Sequence record: OR067838.1 | DNA length: 64,000 bases | DNA from: Escherichia phage KKP 3954 | Reading direction: 5' to 3' (one strand) | Part shown: positions 28,915 to 55,144 of the stretch, piece by piece | Layout of the letters: every line of letters begins with the position of its first letter | How positions within the stretch are numbered: position 1 is the stretch's first letter | Program-made: the position numbers and the translations under genes | The notes under the pieces: model-generated | Databases searched by the model: none | Seen by the model: only the letters and a program-made list of their open reading frames with translations | Told to the model about the DNA's origin: nothing

Positions 28915-28937
28915 CAAAAAGCCTCCAATAAGGAGGC
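28915..28937 (-). terminator. rho-independent terminator downstream of tRNA cluster
   Basis: GCCTCC-AATAA-GGAGGC hairpin with U-tract on minus strand. Confidence 0.45.
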
Positions 28938-29053
28938 CAATAAATACTGTTAATTTGAAATGCTTTATTATGATTGTGCGTTAAGGAGTCGCACCCCTCC
29001 ATCTTAGAAGGAACCAGGCAAGGTCTTCAAAGATACCGCTGGCAAGCGATATT

Positions 29054-29132
29054 TGGAGGCGGGAATTGGATTTGAACCAATGATCTCCAGCATATGAAAC
29101 TGGCGAGGACGACCAGACTCCTCTATCCCGCT
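29054..29132 (-). tRNA. tRNA-Met (CAU), CCA encoded
   Basis: Manual fold: acceptor AGCGGGA/UCCCGCC, D-stem GAGG/CCUC, anticodon loop UUCAUAU, T-arm AUUGG-UUCAAAU-CCAAU. Confidence 0.6.
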
Positions 29133-29139
29133 ATCATGT

Positions 29140-29208
29140 ATCCCGTGCTGGATTCGAACCAGCGTCACAATAAATTGTGGATCTCTTATCCTGTAAGTCT
29201 AACGGGAA
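29140..29208 (-). ncRNA. tRNA-like RNA with aberrant anticodon arm
   Basis: Canonical T-arm GCUGG-UUCGAAU-CCAGC and 6-bp acceptor, but the middle folds only as CACAA-UUUA-UUGUG; 69 nt. Confidence 0.35.
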
Positions 29209-29210
29209 AC

Positions 29211-29284
29211 TGGTTGTTTCGACAAGAATCGAACTTGTGTCTCACGATTATCAGTCGTGGGTTCTACCATTGAACTACGAAACA
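29211..29284 (-). tRNA. tRNA-Ile (GAU)
   Basis: Perfect 7-bp acceptor, D-arm GUUC/GAAC, anticodon loop CUGAUAA, T-loop UUCGAUU, CCA encoded. Confidence 0.7.
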
Positions 29285-29290
29285 TTTAAT

Positions 29291-29367
29291 TGGTCGGAAT
29301 TGCAGGATTCGAACCTGCGACCCTACGCTCCCAAAGCGTATGCTCTACCAAACTGAGCTAAATTCCG
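29291..29367 (-). tRNA. tRNA-Pro (UGG)
   Basis: 7-bp acceptor, D-arm GCUC/GAGC, anticodon stem UACGC/GCGUA, loop UUUGGGA. Confidence 0.7.
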
Positions 29368-29372
29368 TTATA

Positions 29373-29448
29373 TGGCTGGTCTGTCTGGATTTGAACCAAA
29401 CCTACGACAGTCAAAGTGTCGTGTGCTACCGGACTACACTACAAACCA
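29373..29448 (-). tRNA. tRNA-Gln (UUG)
   Basis: Acceptor with one G-U, anticodon stem CGACA/UGUCG, loop CUUUGAC. Confidence 0.65.
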
Positions 29449-29546
29449 ATAAATCATTTAATGAAGGGCAACCAGAAGAAGTGTGAGAGAAGGAGAAAAC
29501 CATGAGTAAAAGAGAAAGTTTTCTGGCAACCCTTTATTAAATAATT

Positions 29547-29620
29547 TGGAGCGTTCTACGAGGATCGAACTCGTGCCGCCGACTTGGAAGGACGGAATGC
29601 TACCGCTACACCAAGAACGC
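29547..29620 (-). tRNA. tRNA-Gly (UCC)
   Basis: 7-bp acceptor, T-arm ACGAG-UUCGAUC-CUCGU, anticodon loop CUUCCAA. Confidence 0.65.
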
Positions 29621-29933
29621 CCTATATATTTACTATACTACATTTTACTATTTGTTGTCAAGACTTTTATTGATTGGGACAGTGACGAGTATCCCGTTGG
29701 GTGACTAGCCCTACGTTCGGTAAGCTAACTTAAAATAATACAAAACCAAAGTCAAATATTATTCTTCGTTGCTGTCGATGGGAGAGCCGCTTCTCATTTT
29801 GCCCCATCCAACCCTACTCCGGTCAAGTTTCGGGTGACTCTTTTTGTGATCAACACAATACTAAGAACACTGTCTTTCGAGCAGACCTTGTGCACAGGAA
29901 CGACGATCAATCACAATGCTCTTAATGTTGTGT

Positions 29934-30008
29934 TGGTGCTCCCACACTGAATCGAACAGAGATCCACGGATTACAAAACCGTTGTAATAGCCATTATACT
30001 ATAGGAGC
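29934..30008 (-). tRNA. tRNA-Thr (UGU)
   Basis: Acceptor GCUCCUA/UGGGAGC, anticodon loop UUUGUAA; D-stem weak. Confidence 0.5.
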
Positions 30009-30015
30009 AATGCTG

Positions 30016-30091
30016 GGACTCGGCAGGATTCGATACCTGCAATTCCAGAAGCCTATTGGCGACTGGGGGTTTACCTTAACTCTACAAGTCC
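30016..30091 (-). ncRNA. tRNA-like RNA with 8-nt T-loop and no canonical anticodon arm
   Basis: Perfect 7-bp acceptor and T-stem GCAGG/CCUGC with loop UAUCGAAU; interior gives only short tetraloop hairpins. Confidence 0.3.
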
Positions 30092-30098
30092 ATAATTC

Positions 30099-30184
30099 TG
30101 GCGATGAGTATAGGATTCGAACCTATATTGTTCTTTCGAACACGGATTAACAGTCCGCCGCTTAAACCGTTCAGCCAACTCATC
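30099..30184 (-). tRNA. class-II-shaped tRNA with anticodon GUU (Asn anticodon on Ser-like body)
   Basis: 7-bp acceptor, G73, anticodon stem GCGGA/UCCGU, loop CUGUUAA, long variable arm GUUC-GAAA-GAAC. Confidence 0.45.
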
Positions 30185-30190
30185 TTAATT

Positions 30191-30278
30191 TGGTGGTGAG
30201 TGATGGAGTCGAACCACCCGAATCGCAATGATAACAGATTTACAGTCTGCCCCGCTACCCCTACGGAATTAACTCACC
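30191..30278 (-). tRNA. tRNA-Tyr (GUA)
   Basis: 88 nt with long variable arm, anticodon loop CUGUAAA, A73, CCA encoded. Confidence 0.6.
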
Positions 30279-30409
30279 TAAATACTAATATTTAAATTCT
30301 TTTTAAAATAGCCAGTGTTCGCACCACTAACTATGAGTTATCGGTAAGATGGTGGGGGGCTATCTTCCGAAAGTTTACTCTATTAAAGTAAGCTACATTA
30401 AAAAGAACT

Positions 30410-30500: not shown

Positions 30501-30591
30501 TGGCGGAAGGAGGGAGAGTCGAACTCCCAAGGCTCTTTCAAGCTCGGCGGTTTTCAAGACCGTTTTCGTCGCCACATCGATTTGCCCTTCC
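30501..30591 (-). tRNA. tRNA-Ser (UGA)
   Basis: 91 nt, long variable arm, anticodon loop CUUGAAA, T-arm GGGAG-UUCGACU-CUCCC; position 8 is C. Confidence 0.5.
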
Positions 30592-30825
30592 ATACTTATA
30601 ATCTAACATAAAATAATGATTGTTGTCAATACTTTTTTAAAACATTTTACCATGAATGGTGACTCCACCAACCCCCGTTCTCCACGAACGGTGCTCTTCG
30701 AGCATTTATGTCTTCTAATATAACCGTGGCCTTTGTTTATAATGTCTGACATACTTGCCTCATTCTCTGCCACCATGATCAGTAGTGGGTTCAAATCACT
30801 TGAGCTAATTCATGTTAAAATGTTC

Positions 30826-30977: not shown

Positions 30978-31224
30978 ATAAATGTGGTAACAGAGACGCT
31001 GACGATTGTAGAGAACCGCTACATTCTCTAAGACCAAGCCCAACTTTCAGCGTAAAAGTTCTTGAGCCGAGACTATTCCTTTTCCTCTTTGGTAGCTAAC
31101 CTCTGAAGAAGTAGTCTCTAACACTATCCGCAGTGCAAGCCCCTCTTAACAAAAGTCAACGACCCTGTTACCACACTTGATGAACGTATCCTAACATATG
31201 AAGGATACGTTTGTCAATAGTTAT

Positions 31225-35232: not shown

Positions 35233-35589
35233 ATGAGTGGTATTGAAAACAACATTTGTTACCAACCTCTTACCTGGATGGGTGAGGGTCATTATGCGCA
35301 ACGTGTTATCGTCTGTGCTGCAAATAAGTATATTTTGAATAATGGTGAAGAGTTAATTATTCCTTGTGTTCGACATGCAAATCCTGTACTATATGCACAG
35401 TTAAACGTGTTGAAAGAAGCAGGTGTAATCAACAAAACTTTGTGCACACCAGATAATCAAGGCTTTATCGATCAGTATTACAATTGGTGGAGTCGTGCGG
35501 ATGCTTACATCATCGCGGAAAATGCTGACCAGATCGACCATGAGCGTAATGGTCACGACCATGAATTATTTAGCGAGGGATTATACTAA
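35233..35589 (+). CDS. hypothetical protein
   Basis: 118-aa ORF with RBS GGAGGA. Confidence 0.3.
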   Translation: MSGIENNICYQPLTWMGEGHYAQRVIVCAANKYILNNGEELIIPCVRHANPVLYAQLNVLKEAGVINKTLCTPDNQGFIDQYYNWWSRADAYIIAENADQIDHERNGHDHELFSEGLY

Positions 35590-36140
35590 TGTTTATTACA
35601 AGCGATTTGCATTTTATGCATAAACGTATTCGAGAGTTTGCTCCTGAATATCGTCCCTGGGAAGATATGGACCACATGACAGAAGCCTTGATCGAAGCAT
35701 GGAACAAATGTGCTACTACTCCTGGTGTTAAGATGTGGCATTTGGGCGACTTCTGTTTCGGAACTGAAGAAGATACCCGTAAAATTGCTTCCCGTCTCCA
35801 AGGAGATATCACCTACTGTGTTGGGAACCATGACTACAGCAAACACCGAGAAGTGCTTGCAGAGTATGGAGAAGTGGTGTATTATGACGAAGTGAAATAT
35901 CAGAAGCTGTTCTTCGTCTTAAGCCATTACCCTATGGCCTCCTGGAATAAACAAGGTCGTGGATCAATCATGCTACACGGGCATTCCCACGGATCTTTCC
36001 CTGATGAAGCTTATGGTAAAATGTTAGATGTGGGTTGGGATGCACACGGAAAAATCTTGCATTTTGATGAGATAATTTCTATGATGAGTAAACGAGATAT
36101 CGTGACTGTAGACCATCACAAAATAATCAAAGGAGAGTAA
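35589..36140 (+). CDS. calcineurin-like metallophosphoesterase
   Basis: Motifs SDLHF, GDFCFG, GNHD, GHSHG. Confidence 0.6.
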   Translation: MFITSDLHFMHKRIREFAPEYRPWEDMDHMTEALIEAWNKCATTPGVKMWHLGDFCFGTEEDTRKIASRLQGDITYCVGNHDYSKHREVLAEYGEVVYYDEVKYQKLFFVLSHYPMASWNKQGRGSIMLHGHSHGSFPDEAYGKMLDVGWDAHGKILHFDEIISMMSKRDIVTVDHHKIIKGE

Positions 36141-36141
36141 T

Positions 36142-37074
36142 GTGACTAAATTTAATTGCGACGATTTGGTTGAAAAAGGTTTAGTTCATAAGAAAACATA
36201 TAAAGAAGGAGAGTATTCTGGTCTATCTGTTCTTAAGTATAAGAACAAAGTTTTCTGGGATAACTTATGGAGCATTGATTCTCGTCTTCTAGAATGTCGC
36301 GGAATCGTTGTTGATGCTGATGACAATGTTGTTATTTGGCCTTTCACTAAGATTTTTAATCGTTTTGAGAATGGCACAGATCTACCATTGGATGAACTTG
36401 TAGATGTGGTTCGTAAAGTAAATGGTTTTATGGCCTCTGTAGGTGTATATAAAGGTCAACTTATTGTATCGACAACAGGAAGCCTTGAATCAGATTTTGC
36501 AAGTATTGCAAAGAATCGTATTGTTTCAGAGTGTGATGACATAGAACATTTCATCAAATGGACAGAGAGTGCAAAAGCAACTTTCCTTTTTGAAATCTGT
36601 GATCCTTCTGATCCGCATATTGTCGAAGAAGAACCAGGTGCATACTTAATTGGTGCCAGAATTCAAAATCCTGATGGGACAAGTTTTATGTTACCTGAAG
36701 GTGCTCTTGATGGAATTGCTTCTGTCACCAAATTTAAGCGTCCTGAAGTTCATCCAATGGTTAAGTTTTCAGATGTTGTTGAAATGTCTAAACATTGTAA
36801 ACACGAAGGGTTTATTGTTCGTGAAACAAACTGTCCGTTTAACTTACTTTTAAAGATTAAGTCACCATACTATCTTACTAAGAAGTTTCTTATGCGTGGT
36901 GGAGATAAGAAGTGGGATCTTATTTGGGATAATCCAAAAAATGCCAAACAAATTGTTGACGAAGAATATTACACTTTGTTAGAATGGATTCGAAATAATT
37001 TTACGAAGACTCAATGGGCTGCTTTAAATCAGCAAGAGCGACGTGAAGAAATCGAAAACTTCTTTGGAGGATAA
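36142..37074 (+). CDS. RNA ligase, T4 Rnl1-like
   Basis: LLECRGIVVD and motif I KVNG, EGFIVRE, LLLKIKSPYY parallel T4 RnlA blocks. Confidence 0.6.
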   Translation: MTKFNCDDLVEKGLVHKKTYKEGEYSGLSVLKYKNKVFWDNLWSIDSRLLECRGIVVDADDNVVIWPFTKIFNRFENGTDLPLDELVDVVRKVNGFMASVGVYKGQLIVSTTGSLESDFASIAKNRIVSECDDIEHFIKWTESAKATFLFEICDPSDPHIVEEEPGAYLIGARIQNPDGTSFMLPEGALDGIASVTKFKRPEVHPMVKFSDVVEMSKHCKHEGFIVRETNCPFNLLLKIKSPYYLTKKFLMRGGDKKWDLIWDNPKNAKQIVDEEYYTLLEWIRNNFTKTQWAALNQQERREEIENFFGG

Positions 37075-37479
37075 ATGAAACAACTTATCATTTTACGTGG
37101 TGTTTCAGGTGCTGGTAAATCTACAGTAGCAGAAATTATTTCTGAAGGTTATTGGCCTATCTGCGAGGCAGATCAATATCATTACACAGAAAGTGGTGTT
37201 TACGATTGGAAGCCAGAAAATGTAGGTAAAGCACACGCATGGTGTCAGAGTATTGTTCGTGATGCTATGGCGTCTAATCTTAACAAGATTATTGTTTCTA
37301 ACACTTCAACCACAGAGAAAGAACTTAAACCTTATCTAGCTCTTGCTGAAGAGTTTGGTTATCAAGTTATCTCTTTAGTTGTTGAAAATAGGCACGGTAA
37401 TGATTCAATTCACGAGGTTCCACAATATATCCGTGATCAGCAAGAGAAACGTCTTCGTGGTTCACTTAAACTTCAATAA
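37075..37479 (+). CDS. polynucleotide 5'-kinase (P-loop)
   Basis: Walker A GVSGAGKST, IVSNTS block like T4 Pnk kinase domain. Confidence 0.55.
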   Translation: MKQLIILRGVSGAGKSTVAEIISEGYWPICEADQYHYTESGVYDWKPENVGKAHAWCQSIVRDAMASNLNKIIVSNTSTTEKELKPYLALAEEFGYQVISLVVENRHGNDSIHEVPQYIRDQQEKRLRGSLKLQ

Positions 37480-51863: not shown

Positions 51864-52349
51864 ATGCGCTATCTGGTAACAGGTGGTCTTGGTTTTATTG
51901 GGAGCGCCGTGGTGCGCTCTCTTTGTCAAGATCCTAATAACGAAGTTTTTATCATTGATAAAATGGGTTATGCAGCAGACATTGAGAATGTAGGTGATAT
52001 CACTCACGCTAAACTAAGCATGACAGATTTGGCAAACGAAGCCCAGGTCAAAAGTTTAGTAGTAGAGTGCAATCCCGATTTCATCATTCACTTAGCGGCA
52101 GAGAGCCATGTGGATAATTCTATCAAGAATCCACGAGCTTTCATCGACTCCAATATTATTGGTACATACAATTTATTGGAAGCTGCAAGGCTCCTCCCAA
52201 AGAATAAACTGAAGATGTTCATACACGTCTCCACAGACGAAGTGTATACGGTGATATGGCAGACTCTGGCGTTCCCTTTACCGAAGAGACAGCTTATGCC
52301 CCTTCAAGCCCGTACAGTGCGTCTAAGGCAGCATCTGACCATCTTGTGA
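51864..52349 (+). CDS. rmlB: dTDP-glucose 4,6-dehydratase, N-terminal fragment
   Basis: Rossmann GGLGFIGS; reads through HVSTDEVY then leaves frame. Confidence 0.75.
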   Translation: MRYLVTGGLGFIGSAVVRSLCQDPNNEVFIIDKMGYAADIENVGDITHAKLSMTDLANEAQVKSLVVECNPDFIIHLAAESHVDNSIKNPRAFIDSNIIGTYNLLEAARLLPKNKLKMFIHVSTDEVYTVIWQTLAFPLPKRQLMPLQARTVRLRQHLTIL

Positions 52350-52858
52350 AAGCTTGGCACCGTACCTACGATTTACCTGTTGTGATAACCAACTGCTCCA
52401 ATAACTTTGGACCCTATCAACATCCAGAAAAGCTGATCCCAAAAATCATCACAAGTATCTTGACGAATAAAGAGATTCCGGTGTATGGTAAAGGCGATCA
52501 GGTGCGAGACTGGCTTTTTGTTGAGGATCATGCGCGAGCTATTCTTCAAGTGGCAACAGGTGGAGAACCAGGTAAAACGTATAATGTGGGAACACGTAAT
52601 CCCAAAACCAATATGGAGATCATCTATATGGTTTGTGACTACATGGATGCTGTACATCCAGAAGCAGGAACCTACCCTTCTTCCAACTTGATAACTTTTG
52701 TTGAAGATCGTAAAGGGCATGACTTGCGTTATGAAATCAATCCTTCTAAGATAGAGTTTGAACTGGGTTGGAGTGCAAACTCTACATTTGAACAAGATCT
52801 CTACTCAACGATTGAATGGTACTTAAACAACCCTCAATGGTGGAGTGGGAAGATTTAA
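52256..52858 (+). CDS. rmlB: dTDP-glucose 4,6-dehydratase, C-terminal fragment
   Basis: Continues VYGDMADSG...[13 protein letters not shown] (YxxxK) in shifted frame. Confidence 0.75.
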
Positions 52859-52866
52859 GGAGGGCT

Positions 52867-53745
52867 ATGAAAGGTATTATTTTGGCGGGAGGAAGTGGAA
52901 CCCGCCTTCATCCGGTAACACGCAGTGTGAGCAAGCAATTGCTCCCTGTGTATGACAAACCCATGATCTACTACCCTTTATCGGTATTGATGTTGGCTGA
53001 CATTAAGGATATCTTAATCATTACCACACCAGGCGATCAGGAAGACTTTGAGTATCTTCTCGGAGATGGGTCTATGTTTGGGATAAAACTCACTTACGCA
53101 ATCCAATCCGAGCCACGAGGTCTTGCGGACGCTTTCATCATCGGTAAAGATTTTATCGGAGAAGACTCTGTTGCTCTTATTTTAGGTGACAACCTATTCT
53201 TCGGACAAAGCTTTGGTAAACTACTGATTAACGCCAGTGAGATGGTAGATGTTTGTGGCGGAGCTTGTATCTTCGGGTATTTGGTGAAAGATCCTGAACG
53301 ATTCGGTGTGGTTGAATTTGGGAGTAATCGTCAAGCTATTTCTATTGAAGAGAAACCTGAAAATCCTAAATCAGATTATGCTGTCACAGGTTTGTATTTC
53401 TATGATAACTCTGTTGTTCAACGTGCATTAGAAGTAACCCCTTCCGCGCGTGGAGAACTGGAGATCACAGATATCAATCGCAGCTACCTCGAAGACAGGA
53501 AGTTACAAGTGGAAGTTCTCGGACGAGGATTTACTTGGCTTGACACAGGAACACACGCCAGTCTGATGGAAGCTGGTCAATTCGTGCAGACTATTGAGAA
53601 CCGTCAAGGATTGAAGATTGCGTGCCTGGAAGAAATTGCTTTCAAAAAAGGGTGGATTTCTTTAGAGACTTTGTTGTATCATGGAAACTCACTGAAGAAA
53701 ACAGAATACGGGCAATACCTACTCAAATTAGCGGAGAGAAAATGA
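52867..53745 (+). CDS. rmlA: glucose-1-phosphate thymidylyltransferase
   Basis: [32 protein letters not shown], near-identical blocks to enterobacterial RfbA. Confidence 0.9.
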
Positions 53746-54308
53746 AAGTAGAAAAAACAAAAATTGAAGGTGCGGTAATTATCAAACCAGACGTTTATAA
53801 AGATGATCGTGGTTTCTTTTTAGAAACATATAATGAACAAAAATACGAAGATATCATTGGTAGACAAACTTTCGTTCAAGATAACATGTCTAAATCAAAC
53901 TTCGGTGTTTTGCGAGGAATGCACTTTCAAACAAATAATCCGCAAGGTAAGCTTGTTCGTTGTGTAAGTGGGGAAGTATTGGATTTCGCTGTAGACCTAC
54001 GTAAAGATAGTCCTACTTACGGTGCTTGGGACGGTGTTGTTCTTCGTGCACGACACCATACACAGTTCTGGCTTCCACCTGGTTTGGCACATGGTTTTAT
54101 AGTGCTGAGTATGGATGCTATCTTCGAATACAAATGCACAACTCCATACGACCCTTCCAGCGAACAAAGTTTACGTTGGGATGATCCTGATATAGGGATT
54201 GATTGGGGCTTCGATATGATTTTTGACGAAGATTTTAAACCTATCTTATCAACAAAAGATGCAATGGCTAAGTCTTTTCAACAGCTACGTAGCGAGGGTG
54301 TATGCTAA
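53742..54308 (+). CDS. rmlC: dTDP-4-dehydrorhamnose 3,5-epimerase
   Basis: ATG overlaps rmlA stop; RGMHFQ cupin motif. Confidence 0.8.
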
Positions 54309-55144
54309 CATATCTGGTATTGGGTGGTAATGGACAACTGGGACAAGCTTTACGTAAAGTGGCTCCTTCAAATGTGTCTTTAATTTATCCTAAAGAACGT
54401 GTAGATATTACAAATTTTGAAGCTGTGCGAAACGCTATTGTTGAAGATTATGTAGATGGTGTTATTAATTGCGCTGCTTATACGGCTGTAGATAAAGCAG
54501 AACATGATTTTGCTACTGCTTTGGCTGTTAATGCCTATGGCCCTGCAAATACTGCGGCAGTGTGCAGCAAACTTAAAATTGATTTTGTGCATATTTCTAC
54601 AGACTATATTTTTAATTATTCTCATCCTATTTTTGAAGATACTACACCTAACCCAATAAACAATTATGGGTATACGAAAGAACTTGGTGAAAAAATGGTG
54701 CGAGGAGTTAACCCAAATGCATATATTATTCGAACAGCCTCGGTATATAGCGAATTTGGAAATAACTTTCTAAAAACCATGTTGTCTCGCTATAATGATG
54801 GACAACGTGATTTTATTATTGTTGCTGATCAGTTCTCTTGTCCAACATATGCCCCAGATTTAGCAGAAGCTATTTTTGAAGTATTAAAAACAGGTTGGTC
54901 AAGATCTGTAAAGACTTACCATTTTGCAGGAAGCCATCTTATTTCTTGGGCGGAGTTTGCGGAAAAGATCTTGACACAGATGCCAGAACCTGTTAAGATA
55001 TCGGCGGTATCAGCTTCAACCTATAATGCTCCAGCAGCACGTCCGGTGAAGTCACAATTAGTAACCAGTCACTATCTTACAAAATCAGATTTAAATAAAG
55101 GTATTGAACGGTCTTTAGCAGTATTACTTAATAAGGAGAGGTAA
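54302..55144 (+). CDS. rmlD: dTDP-4-dehydrorhamnose reductase
   Basis: 280 aa, N-terminal GGNGQLG Rossmann motif, operon position. Confidence 0.75.
   Translation: MLTYLVLGGNGQLGQALRKVAPSNVSLIYPKERVDITNFEAVRNAIVEDYVDGVINCAAYTAVDKAEHDFATALAVNAYGPANTAAVCSKLKIDFVHISTDYIFNYSHPIFEDTTPNPINNYGYTKELGEKMVRGVNPNAYIIRTASVYSEFGNNFLKTMLSRYNDGQRDFIIVADQFSCPTYAPDLAEAIFEVLKTGWSRSVKTYHFAGSHLISWAEFAEKILTQMPEPVKISAVSASTYNAPAARPVKSQLVTSHYLTKSDLNKGIERSLAVLLNKER

Follow-up and report, generated by a model that had tools for sequence, protein, structure and literature searches.

Two selectively maintained, tRNA-shaped and non-decoding RNA genes in the tRNA cluster of a Phapecoctavirus coliphage

Introduction

What are RNA genes that sit in a phage tRNA cluster with the body of a tRNA and no anticodon loop? 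Phage tRNA genes have come to be seen as tools against tRNA-cleaving bacterial defenses. The question arises twice in a stretch of 64,000 nucleotides from Escherichia phage KKP 3954 (OR067838.1; hereinafter the window), for which an earlier note had reported tRNA-like elements at 29140-29208 and 30016-30091. Both are found there, within a Phapecoctavirus (phAPEC8-like) tRNA cluster, on the minus strand and in the same sense as the tRNAs; we term them E1 and E2. The features considered, from upstream to downstream on that strand, are:

30600..30629, minus strand: putative sigma-70-like promoter (TTGACA, 18-nt spacer, TAGATT, extended TG), a consensus match only
30099..30184, minus strand: tRNA-Asn(GUU) with a long variable arm, its 3′ end 7 nt ahead of E2 (ARAGORN/Rfam)
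30091->30016, minus strand: E2, a 76-nt tRNA-like RNA gene (from folding, near-invariance and covariance models)
29934..30008, minus strand: tRNA-Thr(UGU), beginning 7 nt past the E2 discriminator base (ARAGORN/Rfam)
29632..29661, minus strand: putative sigma-70-like promoter (TTGACA, 18-nt spacer, TATAGT; 11/12 positions), a consensus match only
29211..29284, minus strand: tRNA-Ile(GAU) with encoded CCA, its 3′ end 2 nt ahead of E1 (ARAGORN/Rfam)
29208->29140, minus strand: E1, a 69-nt tRNA-like RNA gene (from folding, alignment and a covariance model)
29054..29132, minus strand: tRNA-Met-like gene (CAU) with an A1xC72 mismatch, beginning 7 nt past E1 (ARAGORN/Rfam)
28920..28938, minus strand: intrinsic-terminator-like hairpin (GGCCUCC..GGAGGCU, then UUUUG), downstream of the cluster's last tRNA

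Organization of the tRNA cluster

The good acceptor stems and T-arms and the tRNA-like spacing that had been ascribed to the two elements are borne out: the acceptor stems comprise 6 bp plus a U1xU72 mismatch in E1 and 7 bp in E2, and spacers of 2-7 nt separate the elements from the adjoining tRNAs. ARAGORN identifies 10 tRNAs and Rfam 12 in the cluster, and all 12 encode the 3′ CCA. One of the putative promoters (30600..30629) lies directly upstream of tRNA-Ser(UGA) and is likely the start of a unit Ser-Ser-Tyr-Asn-E2-Thr; the other (29632..29661) lies directly upstream of tRNA-Gly and is likely the start of a unit Gly-Gln-Pro-Ile-E1-Met. Genes for a phosphoesterase, a T4 Rnl1-type RNA ligase and a P-loop kinase stand adjacent to one another within the same window. 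We read this trio as an RNA-repair module, which would point to pressure on tRNAs.

tRNA-like bodies without an anticodon loop

Neither ARAGORN nor the Rfam tRNA model calls E1 or E2, and RF00005 (gathering threshold 29 bits) does not match them even at E<=10; a tRNA-finder and covariance-model check, which had been suggested for these elements, thus does not fold either as an ordinary tRNA. A search of the cluster with 4227 Rfam families at E<=10 likewise yields nothing on E1 or E2, the matches to YrlA, mascRNA and tRNA-Sec all falling on real tRNAs of the cluster. RNAfold, in turn, gives the folds that had been drawn by hand, with z-scores of -2.7 (E1) and -3.7 (E2). We also scanned both strands of the window for elements combining U8, a T loop on a 5-bp T stem, and an acceptor stem paired at 6/7 positions or more. 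This scanner returned 11 elements, all within the tRNA cluster (nine tRNAs, E1 and E2), and had zero matches outside it across 128 kb.

E1 and E2 both have an acceptor stem, U8, a TΨC-type T arm and GG in the D loop, the exceptions to the usual tRNA features being U1xU72 in E1 and, in E2, the T loop UAUCGAAU, which is indeed 8 nt long as had been claimed for the second element. Both lack an anticodon stem of 5 bp topped by a 7-nt loop in which U33 and a purine at 37 are present, and the loops at this position are 3-4 nt in relatives. Lacking an anticodon loop, neither element can read codons. The further claim that the interiors fold only into tetraloop hairpins stands for the tetraloop hairpin but not for the “only”, since a D-arm-like hairpin with a GG-containing loop is also present.

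E1: A covarying cloverleaf in three coliphage lineages

E1 folds as UUCCCGU-UA-GA(CUUA CAGGA UAAG)AGA-UC in its 5′ part and (CACAA UUUA UUGUG)-AC-(GCUGG UUCGAAU CCAGC)-ACGGGAU in its 3′ part, with arms in parentheses. The six pairs of the acceptor stem, among them C3-G70, and the U1xU72 mismatch are followed by U8-A9, a bulged D-arm-like helix with the loop CAGGA, a closed 5-bp hairpin with the loop UUUA where the anticodon arm would be, and a canonical T arm with a 7-nt loop. In the window copy the arm at the anticodon position measures 14 nt, which makes a 7-nt loop impossible, and the 3′ tail is ACA, not CCA (..GGGAU-ACA); given this tail and U1xU72, this copy may be a poorer substrate. An alternative 9-bp acceptor stem formed by pairing of G-2/U-1 with the tail was rejected as Mt1B1_P17 has an A at -2.

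A covariance model of the E1 family (R2) scores the window copy at 98.1 bits. The family is carried by three unrelated coliphage lineages, namely Phapecoctavirus, a few Vequintavirinae (A7_1, UPEC06 and others) and the siphovirus phiEB49, and its neighbors differ between them, being tRNA-Ile, Tyr or Arg. In the E1 alignment 95% of the cells are paired, as compared to 37-46% in slid controls. Six pairs have changed on both sides, in the acceptor stem, the D helix, the hairpin and the T stem; the covariation score was reached by none of 500 shuffles, and RNAalifold independently predicts the same cloverleaf. The hairpin retains a stem of 5-7 bp, with a loop that varies in length and sequence (UUUA, CUUA, CUA, UAU, UCU, AAC). 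The 3′ tails are ACC in most Phapecoctavirus copies and CCA in A7_1, with a clean A73-CCA in phiEB49 only. A metagenome scan and a bacterial-genome scan with the E1 pattern recovered only further Phapecoctavirus copies. BLAST searches with E1 and E2 against 5,426 complete E. coli genomes gave no match; hence, neither element has a host counterpart or a prophage-borne copy in those genomes. A search for a partner protein common to the E1 loci of phiEB49 and the Vequintavirinae and to the window found nothing relevant.

As for its origin, E1 in phiEB49 adjoins a tRNA-Arg(CCU), with which it has in common the D loop ACAGGAUAA (including A20) and the T arm GCUGG-UUCGA(A/G)U-CCAG, along with a similar acceptor stem pattern. 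The best canonical matches of R2 are tRNA-Arg genes at 31-40 bits, including the tRNA-Arg of T4. E1 departs from phage tRNA-Arg in a 3-nt bulge in the 3′ strand of the D stem and in an anticodon loop that is zipped into a closed hairpin without a usable anticodon. We posit from these comparisons that E1 was probably derived from a phage tRNA-Arg.

E2: A conservation island with an 8-nt T loop

E2 folds as GGACUUG-UA-(GAGU UAAGGUAA ACCC) in its 5′ part, (CCAG UC GCC AAUA GGC UU CUGG)-AAUU in the middle and (GCAGG UAUCGAAU CCUGC)-CGAGUCC in its 3′ part. The 7-bp acceptor stem (with G1-C72, G2-C71, A3-U70 and one G.U pair) is followed by U8-A9 and a D arm, GAGU-UAAGGUAA-ACCC, that retains GG in its loop. 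The position of the anticodon arm is taken by a 22-nt closed hairpin (4 bp, a 2x2 internal loop, 3 bp and the tetraloop AAUA), which the linker AAUU joins to the T arm GCAGG-UAUCGAAU-CCUGC with its 8-nt loop. The discriminator base is C, and CCA is not encoded (..GAGUCC-C-AGC).

The covariance model R1 scores E2 at 112 bits, and R1 and R2 together score orthologs at 79-113 bits. E2 is nearly invariant across the Stephanstirmvirinae, with all substitutions lying in loops or junctions or yielding G.U pairs. Between two genera it retains 96-99% identity, as against 74-78% for the flanking tRNAs and 72-75% for the coding flanks; by this measure E2 is a conservation island, though part of this could come from the genera having recently exchanged the tRNA region. 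E2's own alignment holds no double-sided compensatory change; the case for its structure is made by folding, near-invariance and analogy. In one isolate E2 is partially duplicated.

A viral class of elements with an 8-nt T loop

From IMG/VR contigs we defined a class of elements (alignment A4, model R3) whose T arm consists of a 5-bp stem and an 8-nt loop, YAUCRAAY. The T-arm 14-mer has 119 viral occurrences, 79 of these within a perfect 5-bp stem, and only three of the 119 are ARAGORN tRNAs. The 41 strict members have acceptor stems paired at 7/7 positions with covariation; the consensus D arm of the class, UG-GCG-GAAGAUAGA-CGC, is tRNA-Leu-like and lacks G18G19. Where a tRNA has its anticodon arm, these elements carry a variable insert of about 20-180 nt; element sizes (with E1 and E2 counted) range over 69-230 nt. 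Some of the long inserts look pseudoknot-like by eye. We rejected the reading of the long elements as class II tRNAs whose variable arms are exceptionally long, since anything resembling a plausible anticodon arm follows the D arm in just 3/41 strict members. A T-arm match in a Microcystis phage was also set aside as an ordinary tRNA-Leu with a 7-nt T loop. In 29 of the 41, the fetched locus has no called tRNA gene, and no neighbor protein recurs among the 41 class loci.

E2 has the plan of this class: a 7-bp acceptor stem joining its two ends, a 22-nt closed hairpin for the anticodon arm, and a T arm identical to the commonest one of the class, the flanking U and C included. Its D arm with the preceding UA resembles that of the class in layout, agreeing by eye at ~11/18 positions, but differs in keeping GG; other short elements (S-CAM9, L059, L073, L101 and L134) are also off the class D-arm consensus. 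R3 matches E2 over model positions 1-116 with 29.0 bits (E 2e-5), of which ~20 bits are attributable to the T arm alone. This is the sole significant match in the window: R3 has none to E1 or any of the 12 window tRNAs, its only other match being a T-arm fragment within tRNA-Pro (E = 6.4). E1, with its canonical 7-nt T loop, falls outside the T-loop feature of the class. The E2 model, for its part, finds an unannotated analog in cyanophage S-CAM9 between tRNA-Leu and tRNA-Thr. No Rfam family matches the class elements; a description of the class or of E1/E2 was not found in the literature searched, sequence motifs included; and neither E1 nor E2 is annotated in about ten annotated phage records or in the E2 BLAST match tables.

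We advance tentatively, as a proposal that we hold at somewhat below even confidence, that E2 is a minimal member of a large, undescribed viral “tRNA-scaffold” RNA class, with E1 being an independent, tRNA-Arg-derived parallel. Under this proposal, the shared D arm of the class, beside its covarying acceptor stem and its 8-nt T loop (UAUCRAAY), would descend from tRNA-Leu. The tRNA body would provide RNase P processing and stability to a variable cargo ranging from a tetraloop hairpin to ~180 nt, in phages from coliphages to cyanophages, and the modules would act as decoys, aptamers or regulators. E1 would represent the same trick invented separately, possibly against tRNA-targeting defenses.

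Proposed function and alternatives

E1 and E2 are selectively maintained genes with the shape of a tRNA that do not decode. Beyond this, we lean, with a little better than even confidence, toward their being functional, excised, non-decoding tRNA mimics. As such they would be co-transcribed with the tRNAs, and their acceptor/T-arm half would guide RNase P to the 5′ end. The 3′ end would arise from the RNase P cut of the next tRNA (cleavage at the tRNA-Met-like gene setting the 3′ trailer of E1) and subsequent 3′ trimming; the host CCA-adding enzyme may act next, by analogy with T4 tRNA precursors that lack CCA. The products would accumulate as stable RNAs of about 70-76 nt. In such mimicry the tRNA body would confer processing, stability and recognition by tRNA-binding proteins, and the missing anticodon would keep the RNA from translation. 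The leading candidate role is to act, as decoy or competitor, on a tRNA-processing enzyme or on a host factor that targets tRNAs (a defense nuclease or toxin, for instance); phage tRNAs have been discussed as decoys or supplements against tRNA-cleaving defenses (PMC13096335). Taken alone, a specific decoy role for E1 and E2 is doubtful. For the wider class, we envisage the tRNA body instead as a natural scaffold that bears a variable RNA module.

An unlikely alternative, though the best placed of those we considered, is that the elements are former tRNAs kept in cis for RNase P entry, folding or spacing of their neighbors (Ile/Met and Asn/Thr), with the excised RNA having no job. It draws on their position 2-7 nt from real tRNAs in polycistronic units, on the concentration of the strongest conservation in the part read by RNase P (acceptor stem, T arm and elbow), and on the lack of an encoded CCA in both window copies. 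However, the other tRNAs of the cluster mature with 2-9-nt spacers and without any such element, and E1 adjoins an Ile, Tyr or Arg tRNA depending on the phage. Moreover, the E1 hairpin is dispensable for RNase P but is preserved by compensatory changes, and the class relatives of E2 are mostly solitary, as seen in the 29/41 loci without a called tRNA gene.

The earlier note had also allowed for decayed tRNAs, that is, pseudogenes heading for loss after duplication. The missing anticodon loop and encoded CCA fit this, as does the 1:72 mismatch, which is present in all Phapecoctavirus copies of E1. E1 is also more variable within the genus (91-100% identity) than the adjoining tRNA-Ile (98-100%), and single isolates show the partial E2 duplication and, in another phage, an extra base in the E1 T loop. 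Decay is nevertheless quite improbable and is contradicted by the compensatory changes that hold four E1 helices on both sides across three lineages, by the 96-99% identity of E2 amid flanking tRNAs at 74-78% and coding DNA at 72-75%, and by the recurrence of its supposed defects, the closed arm and the 8-nt T loop that is a class hallmark, as a defined pattern in very distant phages.

We consider it very improbable that the elements are working tRNAs with unusual anticodon arms, perhaps made usable by RNA editing or processing. The phiEB49 homolog of E1, with its A73-CCA, is a tRNA-Val(AAC) according to both ARAGORN and GenBank; the arm has exactly the canonical 17 nt in A7_1, UPEC06 and phiEB49; and the central triplet of UPEC06, UCU, is an Arg anticodon. 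Against this, the loops are 3-4 nt and closed by Watson-Crick pairs, and the 14-nt arm of the window copy is too short for a 7-nt loop. A7_1 and UPEC06 have neither U33 nor R37 (CG-NNN-CG), and the loop triplets differ between phages (UAU, UCU, AAC). RF00005 is silent in the window on both elements and gives the phiEB49 copy 24.6 bits, below its threshold of 29, with the anticodon arm unmatched, while E2 has a 22-nt arm with a tetraloop. Finally, chance resemblance to tRNAs in AT-rich spacer, for which it can be said that short stems are common and nothing further, is refuted and retains practically no probability: it is excluded by the absence of scanner matches elsewhere (zero false positives in 128 kb), and by the ortholog scores of 79-113 bits and the homologs in distant phages.

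Significance

Selected, non-decoding RNAs of tRNA shape suggest a second use of the tRNA fold by phages, in mimicry or scaffolding rather than translation. The 8-nt T loop is a simple feature by which hundreds more could be found in viral metagenomes. Should the class prove real, it would supply new candidate RNA-based anti-defense or host-takeover factors, directly testable in an easily grown E. coli phage.

Comparison with known systems

The earlier note had likened the elements to the stable non-tRNA species of some phages, and the likeness holds in kind. RnaC and rnaD of T4 (species 1 and 2) also lie within a coliphage tRNA cluster on the tRNA strand and have no assigned function, and rnaC has a canonical T arm (CCGGG-UUCGAAU-CCCGG) beside an acceptor-like stem, as in E1 and E2. 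They are longer, however (139 nt for rnaC and 119 nt for rnaD versus 69 and 76 nt), and lack a tRNA-sized cloverleaf, rnaD having no clear tRNA-like fold. On L185 1909-2172, R1 (E<=1) and R2 (E<=0.01) leave rnaC and rnaD unmatched, R2 finding only the T4 tRNA-Arg; by these searches, homology of E1 or E2 to rnaC or rnaD is not detectable.

YrlA RNAs (RF02553), the Y RNA-like RNAs of bacteria and phages, are tRNA mimics bound by Ro60/Rsr, with genes that adjoin Ro60. They are non-decoding, mimic the T arm and D arm, are found in some phages, and are substrates of RNase P, CCA addition and pseudouridine-55 formation (PMC4201824). The YrlA module has a permuted layout, with the 5′ and 3′ ends pairing into the Ro-binding helix where a tRNA has its anticodon arm and a closed stem-loop standing in for the “acceptor” (PMC4201824), whereas in E1 and E2 the element's own ends form the acceptor stem. 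No TROVE/Ro domain is present among the 30 window ORFs scanned, and the best match of RF02553 (22.8 bits, with at least 69 needed) is located over real tRNAs.

The tRNA-like domain of tmRNA resembles the 8-nt T-loop class in that it has an acceptor stem and a T arm but, instead of an anticodon arm, a large non-tRNA insert. E1 and E2 differ from it in having no G3:U70 pair, the alanine identity determinant, and no tag reading frame and in possessing a real D stem. E1, E2 and the class elements, at 69-230 nt, are below the typical size of tmRNA, and ARAGORN makes no tmRNA call at E1, E2 or the class sites.

The engineered tRNA scaffold and mascRNA consist of a tRNA body with the anticodon arm replaced or shortened, which provides RNase P processing and stability to a non-decoding RNA. 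RF01684 (mascRNA) gives only a sub-threshold match, on a real tRNA; the tRNA scaffold is an engineered construct and mascRNA comes from eukaryotes, neither is encoded by a phage, and no sequence relationship links either to E1 or E2. Their design principle is nonetheless that of E1, E2 and the 8-nt T-loop class, which, if real, would be the natural counterpart of the engineered tRNA scaffold.

tRNA-like elements E1 and E2 in the phage tRNA cluster

E1 (69 nt) and E2 (76 nt) are real, conserved, unannotated tRNA-like RNA genes that do not decode. The 2.3-kb region around them shows 98.5% identity to the genomes of Phapecoctavirus, a Stephanstirmvirinae (subfamily) group of phAPEC8-like myoviruses that infect E. 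coli and measure ~150 kb. On the minus strand they read as follows:

E1: UUCCCGU-UA-GA[CUUA-CAGGA-UAAG]AGA-UC-[CACAA-UUUA-UUGUG]-AC-[GCUGG-UUCGAAU-CCAGC]-ACGGGAU
E2: GGACUUG-UA-[GAGU-UAAGGUAA-ACCC]-[CCAG-UC-GCC-AAUA-GGC-UU-CUGG]-AAUU-[GCAGG-UAUCGAAU-CCUGC]-CGAGUCC

Neither has a decoding loop. The structures described in the earlier note, good acceptor stems and T arms at these coordinates, are accurate, and RNAfold reproduces both folds (z = -2.7 for E1 and -3.7 for E2); its view that the interiors form only short tetraloop hairpins holds for the hairpins themselves but overlooks a D-arm-like hairpin with a GG-containing loop in each. In the tRNA prediction and covariance scan that it proposed as tests, ARAGORN calls neither element a tRNA and the Rfam tRNA model matches neither even at E ≤ 10. 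A scanner demanding a T arm, an acceptor stem and U8 on both strands of the 64-kb window returned 11 elements, all inside the cluster: nine tRNAs, E1 and E2. Given the agreement of RNAfold, the silence of the tRNA finders and the restriction of the scanner to the cluster, the tRNA-like architecture is real and chance is excluded.

Features of the tRNA cluster
30977 to 29054, minus strand: tRNA cluster
31217-31188, minus strand: predicted sigma-70-like promoter
30629-30600, minus strand: predicted sigma-70-like promoter
30505-30591, minus strand: tRNA-Ser(UGA)-like gene with an odd D arm
30194-30278, minus strand: tRNA-Tyr(GUA)
30091-30016, minus strand: E2
29661-29632, minus strand: predicted sigma-70-like promoter
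29208-29140, minus strand: E1
28938-28920, minus strand: terminator-like hairpin

ARAGORN finds 10 tRNAs in the cluster and Rfam contributes two that it misses, tRNA-Tyr (39 bits) and the tRNA-Ser-like gene (35.7 bits, with the tRNA-Sec model only). Several related genomes carry an annotation for the former, which one calls a pseudo-tRNA, and the phiWec188 record carries a tRNA-Ser at the position matching the latter. CCA is encoded in all 12. The promoters, which match 10–11 of 12 consensus positions across the three, and the terminator-like hairpin are predicted to split the cluster into transcription units; E2 lies in a putative Ser-Ser-Tyr-Asn-E2-Thr unit and E1 in a putative Gly-Gln-Pro-Ile-E1-Met unit, placing both in promoter-to-terminator tRNA units.

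Several other cluster features on the minus strand are unusual. Between promoter 31217-31188 and the first tRNA-Met, a 205-nt leader (30978-31182) folds very stably (-77 kcal/mol, z = -5.7) with a 16-bp closing helix (GUGGUAACAG.../...CUGUUACCAC), is 98.6–99.5% conserved among the Phapecoctavirus loci that cover it, and has no Rfam match; it may be a further structured non-coding RNA. In the tRNA bearing anticodon GUU (Asn; 30099-30184), the variable arm is long (~14 nt), a class II shape that in bacteria is normally confined to Leu, Ser and Tyr tRNAs, and its charging identity could be unusual. The last tRNA (CAU; 29054-29132), labelled 'pseudo' in some records, shows an A1xC72 mismatch alongside a long D loop and is 95–97% conserved between genera, on par with E2. 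Two tRNA-free stretches, 29621-29933 (~310 nt) and 30279-30409 (~130 nt), are far more variable than E2; the former folds only somewhat more stably than its shuffled versions (z = -1.7), and Justusliebigvirus has a small ORF at its position.

E1 is a conserved, covarying family

BLAST places E1 in 75 phage records, mostly of Phapecoctavirus (90–99% identity), with a few Vequintavirinae (A7_1, A73, UPEC06, LTH01) at 77–81%; a separate search added the Vequintavirinae phage W70, and a pattern scan of IMG/VR a copy in the siphovirus phiEB49. The preceding tRNA is Ile in Phapecoctavirus, Tyr in Vequintavirinae and Arg in phiEB49; therefore, E1 travels as a module the size of a tRNA. The aligned sequences of 10 distinct E1 copies support a four-helix cloverleaf, with 95% of cells paired and two-sided changes at six pairs (e.g., 3:70 C-G to U-A, 11:28 A-U to G-C, and 49:65 G-C to A-U). 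In 500 shuffles the observed score was never reached, pairing falls to 37–46% with slid partners, and RNAalifold independently yields the same cloverleaf.

The hairpin at the anticodon position is closed by 5–7 bp in every copy, while its loop varies in length and sequence (UUUA, CUUA, CUA, UAU, UCU, AAC). The A7_1, UPEC06 and phiEB49 arms have exactly the tRNA length of 17 nt, with 32/38 and 33/37 complementary so that the loop is zipped shut; read directly from the sequence, the 7 bp of phiEB49 require one bulged U. Both ARAGORN and GenBank label the phiEB49 copy tRNA-Val(AAC), and it scores 24.6 bits against the Rfam tRNA model (threshold 29) with the anticodon arm unaligned. E1 is a conserved family and not a wreck. 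Its most likely source is a tRNA-Arg gene of a phage: E1 and the adjoining phiEB49 tRNA-Arg(CCU) have both D loop (ACAGGAUAA) and T arm in common, and the best canonical matches of the E1 covariance model are tRNA-Arg genes, T4's included, a ranking partly biased by the choice of some loci with the same D-loop word. The 3′ ends differ, with A73-CCA in phiEB49, CCA right after the stem in A7_1, ACC-U in most Phapecoctavirus and ACA in the window; all Phapecoctavirus copies share a 1:72 mismatch.

The ESCO25 copy (locus L051, 2208-2281) has an extra A opening an 8-nt T loop (AUUCGAAU). Separately, Vequintavirinae (L003 1442-1519; L004 1069-1146) and Justusliebigvirus loci (L053 1307-1384; L054 1313-1390) carry an uncalled tRNA-like gene. 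Besides its acceptor stem and T arm it has a perfect Arg anticodon arm with loop CUUCUAA and with stems that covary from one lineage to the other; it lacks a normal D arm, and a long segment follows the anticodon arm.

E2 is a conservation island

Records with E2 come only from Stephanstirmvirinae (87 records, at least 94% identity), and in each of them the element is flanked by tRNA-Asn and tRNA-Thr. Between the window and Justusliebigvirus (phi92-like) it is 96–99% identical, as against 78% for tRNA-Asn, 74% for tRNA-Thr and 72–75% for the coding flanks, with the spacers mostly unalignable; tRNA-Ser(GCU) and the last tRNA-Met alone match it in conservation. Thus, E2 is a conservation island. 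Substitutions in it are few: they change the tetraloop from AAUA to AAGA, affect the internal loop, the C-run of the D-stem junction or the discriminator base, or form G.U pairs. As the alignment holds no two-sided pair changes, the fold rests on thermodynamics, near-invariance and analogues. In phage Esher1 (MirsaeidiM_Esher1, L048 1150-1295) the 5′ half of E2 shows a tandem partial duplication.

A wide viral class with an 8-nt T loop

IMG/VR has at least 119 occurrences of the central 14-mer of the E2 T arm (AGGTATCGAATCCT). Among the 119 matches listed, 79 have a perfect 5-bp stem around it (~17 expected by chance) and only three are ARAGORN tRNAs. Many of these elements share a plan: a 7-bp acceptor stem, unlike in sequence in each and perfectly paired; after its 5′ strand, UG-GCG-GAAGAUAGA-CGC, which is the D arm of a tRNA-Leu-type class II tRNA lacking G18G19; an interior of ~20–180 nt; the 8-nt T-loop arm; and the acceptor 3′ strand. 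Independent selection by the D-arm 16-mer gave 31 elements closable by a strict finder, 28 of them with an 8-nt T loop (UAUCGAAU, UAUCAAAU, UAUCAAAC or CAUCGAAU). Rather than reflecting damage, a T loop of 8 nt is a signature feature.

The 41 strict, distinct members measure 82–228 nt; three have anything resembling an anticodon arm after the D arm, 29 have no ARAGORN tRNA gene in their locus, and no recurrent neighboring protein was found across the 41 loci. Some members of the class encode ACCA, and several inserts look pseudoknot-like by eye. No Rfam family is reported at these elements, and literature searches, including queries with sequence motifs, returned no description of them. The class as a whole spans 63–228 nt and goes uncalled by tRNA finders, with a covarying 7-bp acceptor stem, the T loop UAUCRAAY, a tRNA-Leu-like D arm without GG (GCGGAAGAUAGACGC) and a variable insert where an anticodon arm would stand; IMG/VR examples are L074 7705-7773, L159, L068 6335-6443, L063, L061, L239, L055 and L136.

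A covariance model of 16 class members matches E2 over its full length (29.0 bits, E 2e-5), its sole significant match in the window; neither E1 nor any of the 12 canonical tRNAs matches significantly (a T-arm fragment within tRNA-Pro has E = 6.4). Since the T arm alone can supply ~20 bits and the E2 D arm departs from the consensus, membership of E2 is supported but not proven. Short E2-like elements occur in IMG/VR (e.g., L059, L073, L074, L101, L134); their acceptor stem encloses a small D arm and a closed hairpin, then a linker of 3–4 nt that leads to an 8-nt T-loop arm. The cultured cyanomyovirus S-CAM9 (L277 364-433) has one, an unannotated 70-nt element between tRNA-Leu and tRNA-Thr with a UUCG-type hairpin loop and T loop UAUCAAAU, which the E2 model scores at 34 bits as against 17 for the neighboring tRNA-Thr. 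Unexpectedly, E2 may offer a way into a large class of viral RNAs.

Proposed processing and role

RNase P reads the elbow together with the acceptor and T helices as stacked, and hence, by analogy with established tRNA processing, would be expected to cut E1 and E2 at their 5′ ends. Its cut of the next tRNA would leave a 7-nt trailer for trimming by 3′ exonucleases, and the host CCA-adding enzyme, which completes CCA-less T4 tRNA precursors, may finish the 3′ ends. The products would be stable tRNA-shaped RNAs barred from decoding. We posit that mimicry is their most likely role: they would act as decoys or competitors for a host factor that binds tRNA or, for members of the wide class, as tRNA scaffolds for a variable module.

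That they serve instead as in-cis processing aids is unlikely, as the neighbors of E1 differ between phages, the hairpin is dispensable for RNase P yet under selection, and wide-class members mostly stand alone. Decay into pseudogenes, offered in the earlier note, is still less probable and is countered by the covariation of E1 and the conservation island of E2. We give little credence to odd but working tRNAs in view of the loop geometry and the variable loop triplets, and a chance resemblance to tRNAs is negligible.

Three lines fit mimicry. About 6 kb from the cluster (35589-37479, plus strand), adjoining genes for a calcineurin-like metallophosphoesterase (183 aa), a T4 Rnl1-type RNA ligase (PF09511, 310 aa) and an AAA_33 P-loop kinase (134 aa) can be read as a complete RNA/tRNA healing-and-sealing repair module. 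Such repair is the classical answer to anticodon nucleases, implying pressure from host tRNA nucleases. E1 is patchy across unrelated coliphages, resembling accessory counter-defense genes. Finally, a decoy or supplement role of phage tRNAs against tRNA-cleaving defenses has already been discussed (PMC13096335).

Elsewhere in the window, a dTDP-rhamnose gene set (51864-55144, plus strand) comprises an rmlB-like dehydratase, rmlA, rmlC and rmlD; the dehydratase is divided between ORFs 51864-52349 and 52256-52858, whose overlap points to a frameshift or sequencing error.

Comparison with known tRNA-like RNAs

The likeness to stable non-tRNA species suggested in the earlier note is borne out best by T4 rnaC, the closest in kind: this stable RNA is likewise encoded among the tRNAs of a coliphage and has a T arm beside an acceptor-like stem. 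However, rnaC is 139 nt long and has no homology to E1 or E2. The engineered tRNA scaffold and mascRNA embody the same principle. tmRNA likewise joins a tRNA top to an insert, but its G3:U70 and tag frame are absent from E1 and E2. The YrlA Y RNAs are also tRNA mimics, distinguished from E1 and E2 by their permutation and Ro60 link (PMC4201824). By their defining tests, E1 and E2 are neither canonical tRNAs nor rnaC, YrlA, tmRNA or scaffold/mascRNA; they belong among the tRNA mimics, a known kind of RNA.
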